Assembly (NCBI GenBank): GCA_044229355.1
Contig: JBGATF010000005.1
Location: forward strand, 309,161 to 373,160
From: Limisphaerales bacterium
Lineage (GTDB): Bacteria; Verrucomicrobiota; Verrucomicrobiia; Limisphaerales; JADJPG01
Length of the DNA: 64,000 nt
Reading direction: 5' to 3'
Part shown: piece after piece, positions 2,770-9,334 of the stretch
Layout of the letters: every line of letters begins with the position of its first letter
How positions within the stretch are numbered: the first letter of the stretch is position 1
Notes under the pieces: model-generated
Databases searched by the model: none
What the model saw: the letters and a program-made list of their open reading frames with translations, nothing else
What the model was told of the DNA's origin: nothing
Translations under genes and position numbers: made by a program

Positions 2770-5430
2770 ATGAAAGCGTTGCCCATCCTTCTCGCGTTCG
2801 CCGCCGTGTCCTCCCTCCCCTGGACAACCCGCTCGGCGGAAATCGTGCCACCTCCCGCGGGCACCAATCTCATCCGCGGCGTCGTGCAGTTCACCAATGT
2901 GGACCCGGACATCCTGGCCCGGCTGGGCCCCCCGGGCGAGGAGGGGTTGGGGAGCCTGACTGTCTTCGCCTACACGGACCCACCGGACTCGCTCCAGGCT
3001 ACGAAAAATCTCACGGCTGCCGATCCACTGAGCGTGCCCTACGAGCTCACGGTCGCGGCCGATGACCAAGCGAGAGCCTATCATCTCTACGCCTACCTGG
3101 TCATGGACGGCGACACCGAGGAATATTGGACCAGCCCGGTCCTGGCGTCGGACCTCACCAGCAACTCGCCGCCAGCGACCGTCAACCTCGAGGAATGCGT
3201 CGCGTTGGTCGAAATCCAGTATCAAAGAGCCGATGGCACCCCGGTCGCTGCCAGCGGCGGGCGCGCCAATGTTTACCAGATGGATCCGCCGGCGGGCCTG
3301 CGCGCGCGCTACGGCACCCAACCGCCTGGCCGGACGGGCAATTACCTCGTCGTCCCGGCTGGGGTGGAATTACTGCTCGAGGTGGAAGTGGACAGCGGTT
3401 CCGACGCCTACGCGGACCGCGTGACGCATCGGGAGTCATTCCTGCGGACTTTTGGGTGTGACGAAAAGCCCGTGTTGATCCTGACTATCCCGGAGCCGGA
3501 GGCGTTGGGGCAGATCGTCGGCAATCTCAATCTGGTCGGCGAGCTGGAGCTGCCGACGGATGGCTACCTCGAGCTGCTGGGCCGGCCGGTGATGCGGGCC
3601 GCCGGGCCGCTCGGGAATAAACGACTGGCGGATCCCGGCGCAGAATGGCCCGGGCCCGATGCGGTGCGCACGTTCGCGCTCGCGGGCTTGGTGCCGTCGT
3701 CTCCGTCCGAGACCTGGAGCGTGGCCGGCGAGATCCAGTTTGGCCTGGGCGATCGCTTCGAATACTTCCGCACGCCCGCCCTCGGCGAAGGCACGAACAA
3801 TCCCGGGGTCATTGTCACGGCCGGAAATTCCACGGACGTGGGCGACTCCTTCGTGATGACGCCGTCCCGGCTGACGGGGACCATTACGCTGACCGGGCCG
3901 CCCGAGTTGGACGGACGGCAATCCGGCTTGCGCGGCCTGGTGCGCGCTGGCGATTACGATCCGAATTCGGACGGAATTCCGGACGGCGTGGGACCCGTAG
4001 GCATTGGGGGCAGTTATGTCTACGCCCGGGGCGTGGATGAGCTGGCGGTCGGGTCCAGTCTCTCGACGGCGGGCGGCCAGGCCCTGGCTTCCTTTGCGGG
4101 GGGCTTCGACGGAGGCTCGTCAGCTTTTGCGGGGGATTACGTTGTGACCGTAGGGGCATTGAACGACGAGCCCGGCATTTGGAAACTGGACGGGATCAAC
4201 CTGGCGATCGAACATCCCGGAACCAACAACGCCCCATTGGTCAGCGAATCGATCTACATCACCGAAGACGAACTCTGGCAGGGACCGTTGCTGCCGGGCG
4301 AGACTGTCCGTCAAGACCTGCGATACGGCATGGCCGAAGTCTGTCTGCGTTTGCGATCCCCGGCGCCGTTCTTCTATCCGCGGGTGGTGGGCAGTCTCGG
4401 TGCGTTCAACGGCATCGATTGGGAGGGGCGACCGCGCTCCTACCAATCCTACCTGAGTCTGGCCTCCGCCCCGCCGTATGCCGGGGGCGGCACGACGATG
4501 GACGCGACGATCTCCATGTATTTGCCGGAAGGTACGTATCGCTTGCAGCCGGCGATCAGCGTGCCGGATGCCGACGGCGGGGTGTCGGAGGTGCAGTTGC
4601 CTCCGGTGGACGTCACGGTCGCCGCGCGGGAACAGGTGTGCCTGGATGAATGCCTGCAGATTGTCCTGACGCCGCCCTTCTGCGCCACGAACTCGGGCTT
4701 CGTGGCTTTCGCGGAAGCGTTCTCGTGCGATTCGACCCTGACCAACCTGAGCTTGACCAGCCGGTCGCTGGATTTTCCGGGCATCCGCCTCGGCTACTCC
4801 GACATTCGAATTCTGGCGCCGGTGGGAACGCCGCGGGCGACGCTCAAGACCGGGCACGCCTTGTTCCCGGAGTTCGATTATCCAGGGCACCCGGAATACT
4901 ACTCGAACATCGTTTGGACGGCCGAAGCTCGCGACACCCGGGGTCGGATCGCCACCCGCCAATTTATCGGTCGGTATCCTTTCGCCACGCCGCCGCTGAA
5001 CTGTCCCGATATCAGCGTCCGGTCGGCCAATGGCGTGGACGCCCCCGTGGAGTTCGGGTTGGTTGCGCCGGATGGCGGATCTCTGAACTGCATCCCGCCG
5101 AGCGGAAGTGCATTCCCGGTGGGAGTGACGCCCGTGACCTGCGTGATTCGGGACGTGTGCCGCAATACCAACACGTGCACGTTTCAGGTCACGGTCTCGC
5201 CGTCAACGGGCGGGTGCGATGAACCAGCATTGCGGATCCTGCCAGCTCCCGTTTCGGCGGGCGGCAGCCCCGCACTCACGCTCACTTGGGACTGCGGAGT
5301 TTTGCAGAGCGCCCCGGATCTGGAAGGCCCGTGGGCCACGGTTCCGTCCGCGACCAGTCCCTGGACGATTTCGGCCGATGCCGACCGACGATTCTACCGG
5401 GTTTGTTTGGCCGCGGTGTGCCCGGAGTAA
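2770..5430 (+). CDS. Secreted beta-rich protein with a HYR domain and C-terminal RFYRV domain
   Basis: Signal peptide MKALPILLAFAAVSS; HYR-like CIPPSGSAFPVGVTPVTCVIRDVCRNTNTCTFQVTV; tail LTLTW..LQSAPDLEGPW...RRFYRV. Confidence 0.8.
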   Translation: MKALPILLAFAAVSSLPWTTRSAEIVPPPAGTNLIRGVVQFTNVDPDILARLGPPGEEGLGSLTVFAYTDPPDSLQATKNLTAADPLSVPYELTVAADDQARAYHLYAYLVMDGDTEEYWTSPVLASDLTSNSPPATVNLEECVALVEIQYQRADGTPVAASGGRANVYQMDPPAGLRARYGTQPPGRTGNYLVVPAGVELLLEVEVDSGSDAYADRVTHRESFLRTFGCDEKPVLILTIPEPEALGQIVGNLNLVGELELPTDGYLELLGRPVMRAAGPLGNKRLADPGAEWPGPDAVRTFALAGLVPSSPSETWSVAGEIQFGLGDRFEYFRTPALGEGTNNPGVIVTAGNSTDVGDSFVMTPSRLTGTITLTGPPELDGRQSGLRGLVRAGDYDPNSDGIPDGVGPVGIGGSYVYARGVDELAVGSSLSTAGGQALASFAGGFDGGSSAFAGDYVVTVGALNDEPGIWKLDGINLAIEHPGTNNAPLVSESIYITEDELWQGPLLPGETVRQDLRYGMAEVCLRLRSPAPFFYPRVVGSLGAFNGIDWEGRPRSYQSYLSLASAPPYAGGGTTMDATISMYLPEGTYRLQPAISVPDADGGVSEVQLPPVDVTVAAREQVCLDECLQIVLTPPFCATNSGFVAFAEAFSCDSTLTNLSLTSRSLDFPGIRLGYSDIRILAPVGTPRATLKTGHALFPEFDYPGHPEYYSNIVWTAEARDTRGRIATRQFIGRYPFATPPLNCPDISVRSANGVDAPVEFGLVAPDGGSLNCIPPSGSAFPVGVTPVTCVIRDVCRNTNTCTFQVTVSPSTGGCDEPALRILPAPVSAGGSPALTLTWDCGVLQSAPDLEGPWATVPSATSPWTISADADRRFYRVCLAAVCPE

Positions 5431-5783: not shown

Positions 5784-7169
5784 ATGTTGCATCGCACGCT
5801 CAGGTTGGTGGGGGTGGCTGTGCTCACGGCGGGAGTGGTGTCCGGGGCGGAAACGATCGACGCCGCGTCCCCTGCGCCTGGTCCGTCTGCGGGCGATTGG
5901 CCCCAGTGGCGCGGGCCTCTCGCCAACGGAGTGGCGCCGAACGCCGACCCGCCCTTGTCCTGGAGTGAAACGAACCACGTGCGATGGAAGCTGGCGTTGC
6001 CCGGCAAAGGTCATTCCACTCCGATCATCACGGGCGATCGGGTCTACCTGACCACCGCCATTCCGGTGGGCCCGGCCCGGGAGCCGGTTTATGACCACGC
6101 GCCGGGGACGCACGACAACGTGGGCGTGACGCACCGACACCAATTCGCGTTGCTGGCGGTCGATCGCGCAACTGGGCGTGTGACCTGGCAGAAAATACTG
6201 CGGGAGGAATTTCCCCATGAGGGCGGGCACGAGACGGGCAGTCTCGCCTCGAACTCGCCGGTGACGGATGGCCGCCGGGTCTACGCCTTTTTCGGATCGC
6301 ATGGGTTGTATTGCCTGGATCGCGACGGGACCGTCGTGTGGAGCAGGGATCTGGGGCGGATGGATACGCTGCACGCGCACGGGGAGGGCAGTTCGCCGGC
6401 CTTGCAGGATGGGGCGCTGGTGATCTGTTGGGATCATGAAGGTCAGTCCGCGTTGTACCGTTTCGACGCCCCGACCGGCCGCGAGCGGTGGAAGGTTCTG
6501 CGCGATGAAAAGACGTCGTGGTCGACTCCCTTGATTGTCGCGCAGGGAGGGCGCACTCAGGTGGTCGTCAGCGCCACCCAAAAGGTACGGGGCTACGATT
6601 TCGAGAGCGGCGCGCTGCTGTGGGAATGCGCCGGCTTGTCCCGCAACGTCGTGTCGTCGCCCGTGGCCGGGCACGGCATGGTTTTCGCCGGGAACAGTTA
6701 CGACTGGCAGGCGATGCTGGCCATCCGGCTCGAAGGCGCGAAGGGCGAGATCACCGGAACGGATCGCGTCGCCTGGAAATTGAACCGCCTGACTCCGTAC
6801 GTTTCGTCGCCGCTGCTCTACGGCGACACGCTCTATTTCCTGCGCCACAACCAGAACATCCTCTCCCGGCTGGATCCCATCACCGGCCAGCCGCGGGGCG
6901 AGCCGCTTCGCCTGGGCGACCTGCGCGATTTCATTTTTGCGTCTCCGGTTGGCGCCGCCGGGCGCATCTACGTGACCGGCCGGGACGGCGTTACCGTTGT
7001 TTTGCGCCACGACCGGGAAAACGCCGTGATCGCCGTGAACAAACTCGACGACGTCTTCAGCGCATCGCCGGCCTTGGCCGGGAGAGATCTGGTGCTGCGC
7101 GGCGAGAAGAGCCTCTACTGCATTTCGGAAGCCGCGCCGGCCGTTGGTCCTGGAGCCGGGGGCCGGTGA
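5784..7169 (+). CDS. PQQ-binding-like (BamB-like) beta-propeller protein
   Basis: Signal peptide, DWPQWRGP, PGKGHSTP, and repeated SSP...G...W blades; ATG 5784 preferred over TTG 5757. Confidence 0.88.
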   Translation: MLHRTLRLVGVAVLTAGVVSGAETIDAASPAPGPSAGDWPQWRGPLANGVAPNADPPLSWSETNHVRWKLALPGKGHSTPIITGDRVYLTTAIPVGPAREPVYDHAPGTHDNVGVTHRHQFALLAVDRATGRVTWQKILREEFPHEGGHETGSLASNSPVTDGRRVYAFFGSHGLYCLDRDGTVVWSRDLGRMDTLHAHGEGSSPALQDGALVICWDHEGQSALYRFDAPTGRERWKVLRDEKTSWSTPLIVAQGGRTQVVVSATQKVRGYDFESGALLWECAGLSRNVVSSPVAGHGMVFAGNSYDWQAMLAIRLEGAKGEITGTDRVAWKLNRLTPYVSSPLLYGDTLYFLRHNQNILSRLDPITGQPRGEPLRLGDLRDFIFASPVGAAGRIYVTGRDGVTVVLRHDRENAVIAVNKLDDVFSASPALAGRDLVLRGEKSLYCISEAAPAVGPGAGGR

Positions 7170-7346
7170 ACGGGCGCGGGCGTCGGCGATGAGCCGGCCC
7201 GGTTTTGGGTTCCAACCCTACGGTTCCAAAACTACGGCTTTGCAAGCGGACGGGTTTTTGTTAGCCATGATCGCAAGCCGACGGCAGGGGACATCCGGGC
7301 GGCGGTGCGGTAATCCTTCATCACTCACCAAAAGAAAGGGCATGGT

Positions 7347-7505
7347 ATGGCTGGGCAACCACGTCGAACGACACATCGAAGCAGTGCGGGCAAAAAACTT
7401 TATGCGGTCCGGGACAAAACCGGGAAGTTCAAAGACATCCAGACCTTCGAGCGCGCGCATCGCGCGGACCTGGCCCGGAAAAGCAAAACGGAAAAAAAGA
7501 AATGA
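7347..7505 (+). CDS. Small basic hypothetical protein (52 aa)
   Basis: Not in the ORF track (too short). MAGQPRRTTHRSSAGKKLYAVRDKTGKFKDIQTFERAHRADLARKSKTEKKK; purine-rich RBS AAAGAAAGGG upstream; stop overlaps the next start (ATGA). Confidence 0.7.
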   Translation: MAGQPRRTTHRSSAGKKLYAVRDKTGKFKDIQTFERAHRADLARKSKTEKKK

Positions 7506-8305
7506 CTCCAGCCTTGCGGCAGGTGACCCGCGGATTCCGCGGGCGCCTGGTCTTCCTTCTTCTCTGGCTGACGGCAGGGATGGCCGCCGGTGGGTCGAGC
7601 GGCCGCGCGGCGGTGGTGGTGAGCGGTCCGGAAGTCCAGCCCGTGCTGGGCACCAACGCCGTGGTGACCTGGGTCACGGACGCAGCCACCCGCGGCGTGG
7701 TTCGGTATGGCCTCACCCTTGGCGGCCTGGACCAGACGGTCGAGGAAGAGACCGTCCAGGCGAAACATTCCGTGCGGCTGACCGGCCTGCGGCCGGGCTT
7801 GCGCTATCACTACGTGGTTTCCACTGCGCGGGTGCCGCTGGCCACAAATACGTTCGTCATGCCTGGCTTGATGGCGGCCAGCCCGCGCCCGGCGTCTCCG
7901 ACAGCCCCGCCCGAGGTTTCCCCGGCGACAACGCCCAGCCCGGCCCGGGAAGGGCGCGACGCGGTGCGCACGGTCAGCCCGACCCGGGCTCCGCCGACCC
8001 GGCAAACGTGGGGGCAAGTGGCGAGTTTGCAGGATCATTTCGATCGGCACGGAGCAGACTTCGCGGCCAGGGACCCGGATGATTATGCCCGGCAGGCATG
8101 GGAGTTCTTGCAGCGGGCGCGCCGCGAGGGATTGCCGGCCAAAATCGATGACGACGGAGTCGTGCGGATCTTCGACTCCCGGACCGGTGCCTTCGCGGCC
8201 TACAATCGGAACGGCACGACCAAGACGTATTTCAAACCGAACAGCCGGGGTTATTTCGAGCGTCAGCCGGGGCGTCCGATCGACGCGCGGACCTTGAAGT
8301 TTTAA
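7502..8305 (+). CDS. Signal peptide + FN3 (purple-acid-phosphatase N-terminal-like) domain + Pro/Thr linker + polymorphic-toxin-like C-terminal domain
   Basis: FN3 pattern VTWVTD...VRYG...HSVRLTGLRPGLRYHYVV; C-terminus LQDHFDRHGADF...YARQAWEF...RIFDSRTGAFAAYNRNGTTKTYFKP...YFERQ resembles RHS/CDI toxin tips. Confidence 0.75.
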   Translation: MTPALRQVTRGFRGRLVFLLLWLTAGMAAGGSSGRAAVVVSGPEVQPVLGTNAVVTWVTDAATRGVVRYGLTLGGLDQTVEEETVQAKHSVRLTGLRPGLRYHYVVSTARVPLATNTFVMPGLMAASPRPASPTAPPEVSPATTPSPAREGRDAVRTVSPTRAPPTRQTWGQVASLQDHFDRHGADFAARDPDDYARQAWEFLQRARREGLPAKIDDDGVVRIFDSRTGAFAAYNRNGTTKTYFKPNSRGYFERQPGRPIDARTLKF

Positions 8306-8308
8306 GCC

Positions 8309-8584
8309 ATGAAGCACACGTGTCCAGTTTGTCGGTATCCAGGGTTGGCCGAGGCGCCACGAGGGCAATCCGGGGGCGGGTCGTTCGAAATTTGTCCCAG
8401 CTGCGGTTTTCAGTTTGGGGTGACGGATGACGACGAGGGCGTGAGCTATCTGGCCTGGCGTAAGAAGTGGAAGGCGGCCGGCATGCAATGGTTCAGCCGC
8501 AGCCGGCGTGCGCCGGCCGGCTGGGATCCCGTGGCGCAACTGAAGCCGGCTCCGAAAGGGCGACGCAAGGAACGGGGTCCGTAG
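8309..8584 (+). CDS. Cys-rich CPCC-like protein, putative immunity protein
   Basis: CPVC...FEICPSCGFQFGVTDD...WRKKW...GMQW...WDP..QL; starts 3 nt after the toxin-like gene; no signal peptide. Confidence 0.75.
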   Translation: MKHTCPVCRYPGLAEAPRGQSGGGSFEICPSCGFQFGVTDDDEGVSYLAWRKKWKAAGMQWFSRSRRAPAGWDPVAQLKPAPKGRRKERGP

Positions 8585-8877
8585 GCCGGCCGGGCGATCC
8601 AGGAGGTCGTTTGTTCCGGGGGATTGGCGTGGCCAACGGGGGATGGCGCGCCGAAACGGCGTTGGTGGCCTGGAGCCAATTTCGTGCGGGTTGCCTCGAT
8701 TCTGTAGTTGACGCTTCGGCTCTTTTTTGGCAACCGTTGTCGGCGTCAGCGCAAAGAATAGCGGTGCCGGTGTCATAAGACAGATTGTCAGCCAGCCAGA
8801 ACTAGCGACAGATCAGAGATACTGCCAGGGCAGCAACTCCCCACTTAGTTTTTCGAGCGCCAATCCACCTCGGTGTC

Positions 8878-9231
8878 ATGAATGAGTCCCGTCTCTTCGT
8901 AGGAAACCTCGCCTATCAAACCATGGACAACGACCTGCAGGATTATTTTTCCCAGGCCGGCGTTGTCGCGTCCGTGAACGTCATGCTCGACAAGTTCACG
9001 GGTAAATCCCGCGGCTTCGCGTTTGTGGAAATGTCCACGGCCGACGAAGCCAACAAGGCCGTTGAAATGTTCCACAACAAGGAATTTCAAGGCCGCCCGC
9101 TGACCGTGAACATCGCCCGCCCGCGCGAAGAGCGCCCGCCCCGGCAGGGTGGCGGTGGCGGTGGCGGCTATCGTGGAGACCGCGGCGACCGCGGTGACCG
9201 CGGTGACCGTGGTGACCGCGGCCGGTACTAA
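8878..9231 (+). CDS. RRM (RNP-1) RNA-binding protein with Gly/Arg/Asp tail
   Basis: RNP2 LFVGNL, RNP1 RGFAFVEM; tail GGGGGGGY then RGD five times. Confidence 0.95.
   Translation: MNESRLFVGNLAYQTMDNDLQDYFSQAGVVASVNVMLDKFTGKSRGFAFVEMSTADEANKAVEMFHNKEFQGRPLTVNIARPREERPPRQGGGGGGGYRGDRGDRGDRGDRGDRGRY
9172..9225 (+). repeat. 9-bp tandem repeat (CGCGGTGAC-like) encoding RGD units
   Basis: cgtggagac cgcggcgac cgcggtgac cgcggtgac cgtggtgac cgcggc. Confidence 0.85.
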
Positions 9232-9295
9232 TTCCAATTAATTTCGCGCCGGGCCGCTTCCATCCGCGGCCGCACGCGTCCACTCCAGTTTCGCA

Positions 9296-9334
9296 GAGCC
9301 GCCTGGCCAAACCGGCCCGGCGGCTCTTTCGTTT
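9296..9334 (+). terminator. Putative intrinsic terminator after the RRM gene
   Basis: Stem GAGCCGCC...GGCGGCTC followed by TTTCGTTT. Confidence 0.6.

Follow-up and report, generated by a model that had tools for sequence, protein, structure and literature searches.

The closest described relatives of the system reported here are nuclease toxins that are encoded beside their own inhibitors. Colicin D (PDB 1V74, 1TFO, 1TFK, 5ZNM) cuts the anticodon loops of tRNA-Arg with His611, which lies on an alpha-helix, as the general base (PMC9990079, cited in part), and related C-terminal toxin regions of CdiA proteins (CdiA-CTs) use Lys-Tyr-Thr plus His and Arg (PMC9086364, cited in part). A solved complex from the contact-dependent growth inhibition (CDI) system of Escherichia coli O32:H37 (PDB 8EY4) holds a CdiA tip, named 'PT-VENN domain-containing protein', and an immunity chain named 'Cys_rich_CPCC domain-containing protein'; our literature search found no paper on it. 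Zhang et al. 2012 list a 'T2SS/Sec-dependent' class of polymorphic toxins (T2SS, type II secretion system) with a signal peptide and sometimes with lineage-specific N-terminal domains such as MafB-N, Microscilla-N and APD1/2 (PMC3482391, cited in part). A 64,000-nucleotide (nt) stretch of Limisphaerales DNA (contig JBGATF010000005.1, positions 309,161 to 373,160; hereafter the window) contains two adjacent genes that resemble these systems in several respects. We consider it probable that they form a two-gene toxin-immunity module with a colicin D-like RNase, and we hold the narrower claim, that they are a cognate toxin-immunity pair, with greater confidence.

The region consists of three co-oriented open reading frames (ORFs), at 7347-7505, 7502-8305 and 8309-8584 on the + strand. 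Its features are as follows, with protein positions in amino acids (aa).

7502..8305, + strand: toxin gene, 267-aa precursor (signal peptide, FN3 domain, linker, colicin D-like RNase tip)
7502..7609, + strand: signal-peptide-like N-terminus, aa 1-36 (read from the sequence, heuristic)
7619..7861, + strand: FN3 domain of the purple-acid-phosphatase N-terminal type, aa ~40-120 (Pfam PF16656)
7862..7996, + strand: linker with abundant Pro, Thr, Ala and Ser residues, spanning aa ~121-165 (composition)
7997..8302, + strand: toxin tip, aa 166-267, BECR fold of the colicin D / CdiA-CT(O32:H37) type (structure model and homology)
8309..8584, + strand: putative immunity gene for a cytoplasmic protein of 91 aa, a 4-Cys zinc ribbon from a CPCC-related subfamily
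7347..7505, + strand: 52-aa Lys/Arg-rich small ORF encoding a basic protein, a neighbour outside the conserved module

The toxin ORF encodes 267 aa and ends in a TAA stop, and a spacer of 3 nt (8306-8308) separates it from the second ORF, which encodes 91 aa and its own stop. The start codon of the toxin ORF overlaps the end of the 52-aa ORF by 4 nt (ATGA). A preliminary description of this DNA had placed the toxin gene correctly at 7502-8305 but had started the whole feature at 7347, which is the beginning of the separate 52-aa ORF that it did not mention. The layout that it gave for the toxin (signal peptide, purple-acid-phosphatase-type FN3, Pro/Thr linker, tip) agrees with both the ORF reading and Pfam.

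The tip contains the motif HF.RHG.DF ... YN.NG.TKTYFKP ... YF.RQ, which had been noted earlier and likened to the nuclease-like C-termini of RHS and CDI toxins, and this likeness is borne out by homology searching and by a match to the BECR fold. At E <= 1e-3, an exhaustive search with the tip returns 1161 representative clusters. The match in every one of the 150 listed representatives, which are proteins of 80-3155 aa, lies at the C-terminus or no more than about 70 residues from it. Sixteen of the 26 long representatives that were scanned have RHS-type domains, two have DUF637 (CdiA/hemagglutinin), two have a WXG100/type VII secretion system (T7SS) signal, and six have no match. The 114 shorter representatives include PT-HINT, RHS and phage portal domain contexts, and a PHROG portal-protein family matches the tip through its own C-terminus (E 1.3e-4). 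One toxin domain is common to proteins with RHS, DUF637/CdiA, WXG100/T7SS signal, PT-HINT and phage-portal modules. Judged by this homology, the tip is a real toxin domain, homologous to the C-termini of RHS, CdiA and LXG toxins. It also resembles the Ntox41 ([RK]H, [KR], [ST]xxP) and Ntox26 (KHxx[DE]) toxins in a comparison of motifs only (PMC3482391, cited in part).

A structure model of the tip built from 114 sequences (predicted local distance difference test, pLDDT, 96) has helices at tip positions 17-31 and 36-53 followed by four strands. Foldseek with this model finds the toxin chain of the O32:H37 complex, 8ey4_A, as the sole match at E <= 0.001 (E 3.6e-5), with colicin D tRNase chains next. 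In VIA-align 2 the tip superposes on 8ey4_A with Z 12.3 and a root-mean-square deviation of 1.6 Å over 83 of 88 residues, and on the colicin D tRNase chains with Z 7.1-8.3 over 80-90 residues. Lower matches are a Pseudomonas CdiA-CT (4.9), a ribonuclease C-terminal domain that we take to be colicin E5 (4.4) and HigB1 (3.6). A sequence search with the tip also reaches 8ey4_A (E 0.0076); the two toxin domains are 26% identical and have the motif H..[KR]HG.[DE]F ... T.FKP in common. The tip has the BECR fold of colicin D and CdiA-CT(O32:H37), an N-terminal alpha-helix on a four-stranded antiparallel beta-sheet that can be superposed on colicin D, and is homologous to this group. The structural comparison with BECR and CdiA-CT proteins that had been suggested earlier thus gives a match, and the nucleic-acid target proposed at the same time fits a colicin D-type RNase fold combined with a CPCC-related immunity protein.

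The conserved residues of the tip are also compatible with this assignment. His183 (H27 in tip numbering, to which 156 is added for the full protein) is invariant across 114 proteins from varied contexts. At least 90% conservation is seen in the same proteins for H179, K214, R222, T240, T242, Y251 and Q255 (tip H23, K58, R66, T84, T86, Y95 and Q99). His183 lies on the first helix, where it may correspond to the general base of colicin D and act as the catalytic base with the aid of K214, R222, T240/T242 and Y251. The most likely activity of the tip, by analogy with colicin D and the related CdiA-CTs, is cutting of a specific tRNA.

The 91-aa protein encoded downstream has CPVC at aa 5-8 and EICPSCG at aa 27-33, and a hydrophobic N-terminus is absent. 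The cysteines C5, C8, C29 and C32 are invariant in 52 immunity-family sequences, which also conserve the motifs GGSFEICPxCGFQFGV(S/T)DDD and W..GM.W. Like the immunity proteins of 8EY4 and 8EY3, it is a small 4-Cys zinc-ribbon protein. Unlike that of 8EY4, it matches canonical CPCC proteins over the zinc-ribbon half only (hhalign probability 93.9, E 1.6e-7, a 30-column zinc ribbon). The family lacks the canonical C-terminal half (WEDD ... GGAN..SL of the 8EY4 immunity chain) and has FQFGV(S/T)DDD ... W..GM.W ... P..W instead. Full-length hhalign matches to the family profile are found in a Leptospira protein (probability 99.3, E 3e-20) and a Salmonella protein (probability 98.3, E 2e-14). Some family members have precomputed matches to Pfam Cys_rich_CPCC (PF14206), and one two-domain member, P0270, clears the Pfam cut-off with 26.1 against 24.5 bits. 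From these alignments we conclude that the 91-aa protein is a member of a CPCC-related subfamily, which is a statement of relationship and not of Pfam membership.

Longer forms of the zinc ribbon also occur. The proteins P0270-P0279, of ~175-200 aa, top the immunity-family search; judged by length and score, they appear to carry the zinc-ribbon immunity domain twice in tandem. In L030 (4768-5718), L075 (2668-3609) and L079 (4723-5664) the zinc ribbon runs in frame into a short-chain dehydrogenase domain, for which the Pfam adh_short match was checked in L030 alone, and in L024 (4738-5508) it runs into a NUDIX domain. These read-through ORFs may be real fusions or missed stops.

The two genes are consistently linked. 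A near-length search gives 477 full-length homologs of the toxin, and a genome scan finds the toxin in 260 species-level genomes. Our locus-level counts refer to the 80 loci that the scan returned, every one of which is titled as Verrucomicrobiota. An immunity homologue follows the toxin gene in 79 of them, and the 80th stops at a contig end. The intergenic distance is -4 nt for 21 of the loci and +1 nt for another 17. The linkage of the toxin and immunity genes is therefore an observed property of the family, and 477 full-length homologs with adjacency in 79 of 80 loci make the pairing more than chance. Homologs lacking a CPCC-type neighbour, which would have spoken against a pair, are not what these loci contain. 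Pairwise identities of the immunity protein and the tip correlate as well (r 0.63).

The same association extends beyond the FN3-bearing lineage. A zinc-ribbon gene adjoins the tip in eight of nine non-FN3 contexts examined. In four of these the window-type zinc ribbon follows the tip: after a hemagglutinin-repeat protein of Rhizobium and an orphan tip of Ochrobactrum, whose records leave the immunity ORF unannotated, and after an RHS protein of a Salmonella IncC plasmid and a TIGR04388 protein of Leptospira. A canonical CPCC gene follows a Lactococcus orphan tip and two signal-peptide and tip genes of the same phylum as the window (in genomes G154 and G367). In G154 the CPCC gene overlaps the toxin gene, and its product is matched by the 8EY4 immunity chain with E 4.7e-22. 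E. coli O32:H37, with the CPCC chain of 8EY4, is the eighth context, and G127 is the exception. Across these nine contexts, the window-type zinc ribbon seems to partner tips of the form DH[FY].RHG.DF, and canonical CPCC those of the form HW[EG]KH..EFPEY (loci L093 1221-2026, L095 888-1835, L081 ~2780-3038 and L099 1453-2041). The analysis shows that a colicin D-like warhead keeps its CPCC-type immunity partner whether the carrier is of the RHS, CdiA, LXG, phage-portal or plain signal-peptide kind.

A modelled complex supports the idea that the tip and the 91-aa protein bind each other. The prediction, which the preliminary description had proposed, scores 0.91 in three runs against 0.51 for the best of three controls, although part of this score may be the model's memory, since the distantly related complex 8EY4 has been solved. 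The mark used for this score was reached by 58 of 80 solved complexes and by 2 of 110 mismatched pairs. The runs have at least 95% of their contacts in common, with a partner pLDDT of at least 88. Immunity residues 25-28 (SFEI), Q35, V38 and 41-44 (DDEG) contact H23, R26, T86, P90 and Y95 of the toxin (tip numbering), and this suggests that the immunity protein occludes the predicted active site.

The mechanism that we favor can be stated from these results. The Sec pathway would export the toxin precursor, to judge from its signal-peptide-like N-terminus. In the mature toxin, a flexible Pro/Thr linker would join the purple-acid-phosphatase-type FN3 domain to a metal-independent RNase domain of ~100 aa. 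The immunity gene, which is closely spaced and probably translationally coupled to the toxin gene, would encode a protein whose SFEI and DDD segments sit on the predicted active site, as in the complex model. It could shield the producer from toxin that folds before export or that re-enters the cell. Most likely the toxin acts as an antibacterial RNase that is released or exposed at the cell surface. The toxin-immunity pair proposed in the preliminary description is supported by the homology of the tip, its colicin D-type fold, the linkage of the genes and the CPCC kinship of the 91-aa protein.

The possible memory in the complex score is one of several points that weigh against this mechanism. 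The 91-aa protein itself scores 13.9 bits on PF14206, below the cut-off of 24.5, so that of the earlier name "CPCC immunity gene" the adjacency, the zinc ribbon and the CPCC kinship stand, and the Pfam threshold is not reached. The family profile matches the 8EY4 immunity chain with only E 5-8. Foldseek with a model of the 91-aa protein has the O32:H37 CdiI 8ey3 as its best match at a non-significant E of 2.5, and a search of solved structures with its sequence finds generic zinc ribbons only. The last ~100 residues of the toxin match no Pfam, NCBIfam or PADLOC model. Pfam toxin families, including Colicin_D (PF11429), are unmatched by the tip at E <= 10, the whole protein has no Colicin_D match at E <= 1, and identity to colicin D is 18-20%. 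The correspondence of His183 to colicin D His611 is drawn from alignment end-points and not from a residue-level superposition. In G127, a signal-peptide and tip gene has no zinc-ribbon ORF nearby.

The N-terminal part of the toxin raises the question of delivery. It begins with an Arg-rich segment, continues with the hydrophobic sequence LVFLLLWLTAGMAAG and then GRA/AV. On inspection, and under a crude hydrophobicity rule, this is signal-peptide-like, with a cleavage site guessed at around GRA/A and no lipobox Cys. Homologs have the same layout of n-region, h-region and small-x-small motif. The FN3 domain matches Pfam Pur_ac_phosph_N (PF16656) at aa 51-110 with 36.6 bits against a cut-off of 30, and Pfam fn3 gives 21.6 bits, under its cut-off of 25. 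It is ~31-33% identical to the N-terminal domains of verrucomicrobial proteins that consist of a signal peptide, a purple-acid-phosphatase-type FN3 domain and a metallophosphatase (L088 1411-2769; L092 1468-2964), and proteins of this type are a plausible source of the N-terminal module of the toxin by domain shuffling. The other FN3 matches examined in the phylum are either such metallophosphatase proteins or large proteins. FN3 is the sole domain besides the tip in a Pfam scan of the toxin, which contains no RHS, hemagglutinin, PAAR, LXG or MafB module, as the preliminary description had held.

A second group of adverse points arises here. Sec alone takes a diderm protein no further than the periplasm. 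The stretch from FN3 to the tip has no recognizable receptor-binding, translocation or entry domain, and this leaves an antibacterial role without an import route. Colicin D, in contrast, lacks a signal peptide and carries domains for translocation and receptor binding; its inhibitor ImmD is unrelated to the window's immunity protein but is likewise cytoplasmic and encoded next door. Other traits of colicin-type bacteriocins are not found either: the N-terminus resembles a signal peptide, FN3 is the only extra domain, there is no lysis gene, and an RRM gene stands downstream.

FN3 and the linker could themselves be a self-sufficient targeting and uptake device, which would make this protein a minimal soluble colicin-like tRNase bacteriocin of Verrucomicrobiota with its own import route, conserved and not polymorphic because it is aimed at other phyla and not at kin. 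We regard this as improbable. The order of binding module, linker and cytotoxic domain does recall bacteriocins, FN3 stays with the tip in all 80 loci and in all 120 listed homologs (which cover both parts where complete), and FN3 and tip identities co-vary (r 0.61). Our literature search found no report of an FN3-tRNase toxin architecture or of a purple-acid-phosphatase-type FN3 as a pre-toxin domain. If the bacteriocin reading were true, there would be a Sec-based route for a cytoplasm-acting toxin that needs no dedicated injection machinery. However, the protein has no counterpart of the colicin translocation domain or of the entry domain of CdiA. Proteins with a signal peptide, a linker and the tip but no FN3 also exist (L093, L094), and FN3 is therefore dispensable for deploying the tip domain. 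Signal-peptide-only toxins with lineage-specific N-terminal domains are, moreover, already a described class (PMC3482391, cited in part).

This class also bears on the earlier suggestion that the protein represents an undescribed mode of toxin delivery, which is not supported. The toxin is like the T2SS/Sec-dependent class in having a signal peptide, a lineage-restricted domain, a C-terminal toxin and an immunity gene downstream. Among the 150 representative tip proteins, 58 begin with a segment that a crude rule calls signal-peptide- or transmembrane-like, and they include forms of 140-215 aa with only a signal peptide, linker and tip. In the cited part of Zhang et al., members of the class have a constant N-terminal domain, a polymorphic C-terminus, paralogues and orphan cassettes; here both ends are constant and there is one copy. 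The purple-acid-phosphatase-type FN3 is not among the N-terminal domains that the same part of that paper lists for the class (PMC3482391). This FN3 appears to be a new pre-toxin domain, a variant within the known class, and the FN3-tip protein founds no new delivery class by itself. The O32:H37 toxin differs again in being the tip of a CdiA protein that uses type V secretion, where the window protein has a signal peptide and FN3. The literature search found nothing relevant on CPCC proteins as immunity proteins of polymorphic toxins or on the PF14206 family.

The pattern of conservation is the next point that is difficult for an antibacterial weapon. Mean pairwise identity is 65.5% for the tip, 57.4% for the immunity protein, 45.8% for FN3, 25.6% for the linker and 22.7% for the signal region. 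The tip is the best-conserved part of the toxin, contrary to the diversification that is usual for interbacterial toxins, and a widely shared immunity would blunt competition among carriers. The label "polymorphic" given earlier is not supported: FN3 and tip are fixed together across the 477 homologs and 260 species, and the tip is more conserved than FN3. A search with aa 1-125 alone, looking for the same N-terminus with other tips, found four proteins, all of which bear this tip, although this word-based search has a limited reach. In the 9.93-Mb assembly (95% complete) the tip and the immunity protein have a single match each, with no orphan toxin or immunity cassettes and no paralogues. 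The domain pair is the same as in RHS, CdiA and LXG systems, and it is here a fixed, non-polymorphic, single-copy accessory module. A warhead conserved to this degree is unusual among interbacterial toxins and would also be compatible with a scavenging RNase plus inhibitor, with a weapon directed at other phyla or with a self-directed role.

Barnase is a Sec-exported small RNase of the wider BECR assemblage whose cytoplasmic inhibitor barstar protects the producer; it is a non-specific RNase and has no FN3 fusion. The window genes could similarly encode a nutrient-scavenging exported RNase and an intracellular inhibitor, with the zinc ribbon guarding only the cytoplasm of the producer. Such an enzyme would degrade extracellular or periplasmic RNA, perhaps beside the secreted purple-acid-type phosphatases that have a like FN3 domain. 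The FN3 kinship with the metallophosphatase proteins, the conserved and single-copy state of the module and the missing import domain are all in keeping with scavenging, as is the occurrence of the organism in activated sludge and bioreactors: identical pieces of the stretch are found in metagenome runs labelled as such from several studies. We nevertheless judge this role unlikely. The inhibitor is unrelated to barstar, and the structural match is to the colicin D branch. All close structural relatives of the tip are substrate-specific tRNase toxins and not bulk RNases (PMC9990079, cited in part), and RHS, CdiA and LXG toxins use this domain as their warhead.

The distribution of the pair is patchy. 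This weighs against the favored mechanism, and it is easier to reconcile with an accessory weapon than with a metabolic enzyme. Of 401 genomes sampled across the phylum (at least 90% complete), 5 contain full-length matches, namely the window's own genome and all four sampled from one other family. The sampled genome of the window's own family is without the toxin, and the tip is present in 3 of 31 close relatives. The toxin-immunity pair is an accessory module. The 260 species and the strong conservation had raised the idea of a phylum-wide core gene with a housekeeping role, which was rejected on these two counts. A quick family tree of 80 of 81 rows (one row of <200 aa was left out) shows clustering of order labels, with 11 changes against 21.9 after shuffling. 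These labels were supplied by submitters and include doubtful ones, and no conclusion on vertical descent versus transfer is drawn from the tree.

Clustering of ORFs over the 80 loci gives no conserved third gene. The commonest real neighbor is a cytochrome c-domain gene in 15 loci, and no flanking gene is shared more widely. Two larger neighbor clusters were dismissed as spurious ORFs that the high G+C content creates antisense to the toxin and immunity genes. A tight two-gene module that moves among unrelated neighborhoods might instead be self-directed: a toxin held in the periplasm or on the surface of the producer could strike self or kin after envelope damage or phage attack, in a manner like addiction or abortive infection. 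The periplasmic end-point of Sec export would suit such a role. It is highly improbable in our view, given that the toxin would not share a compartment with its cytoplasmic target, that PADLOC has no defence model match for the pair and that no mobile-element or defence-island genes lie beside the pair in the window.

The favored reading, a toxin-immunity module with a colicin D-like RNase, proposes a function for ~477 FN3-tip and ~1679 zinc-ribbon proteins, which are all called 'hypothetical' wherever their source names them, and links both sets to the solved complex 8EY4. The verrucomicrobial form is unusual in being fixed and not polymorphic. With 267 and 91 aa and cultivable carriers such as Brevifollis gellanilyticus NBRC 108608 (L050) and Verrucomicrobium sp. 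BvORR106 (L068), it is a small tractable system for finding how a Sec-exported, cytoplasm-acting toxin reaches its target, or whether its purpose is a different one.

The surroundings of the pair in the window contain no secretion system near it; eight secretin-domain matches elsewhere in the genome indicate that outer-membrane channels exist. PADLOC and NCBIfam give nothing meaningful for any of the three ORFs, and on the + strand a promoter and terminator scan of 6900-9300 has no usable result. Positions 7936-8148, within the toxin gene, are reproduced identically in a 213-nt contig of a sludge metatranscriptome library; this is a hint of expression at most, and DNA carry-over is possible.

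The 52-aa ORF adjoins the pair in one of the 80 loci (L001). It has no Pfam, NCBIfam, PADLOC or PHROG match, and its Atlas feature matches are 54-58-aa proteins named only as hypothetical. Among the genomes of 31 relatives, 3 contain it with 81-100% identity, and it is 81-88% identical in two of them. In G419 (L098) it precedes a membrane-protein gene, away from any toxin pair.

Directly downstream of the pair, at 8878-9231, lies a gene for an RRM-type RNA-binding protein with a Gly/Arg/Asp repeat tail. It has no linkage to the pair in the other 79 loci and is 97% identical in L001. The genes around the pair in the window encode an HYR-domain protein, a PQQ/BamB-like propeller, this RRM protein, a DHDPS-family enzyme and a BNR protein.

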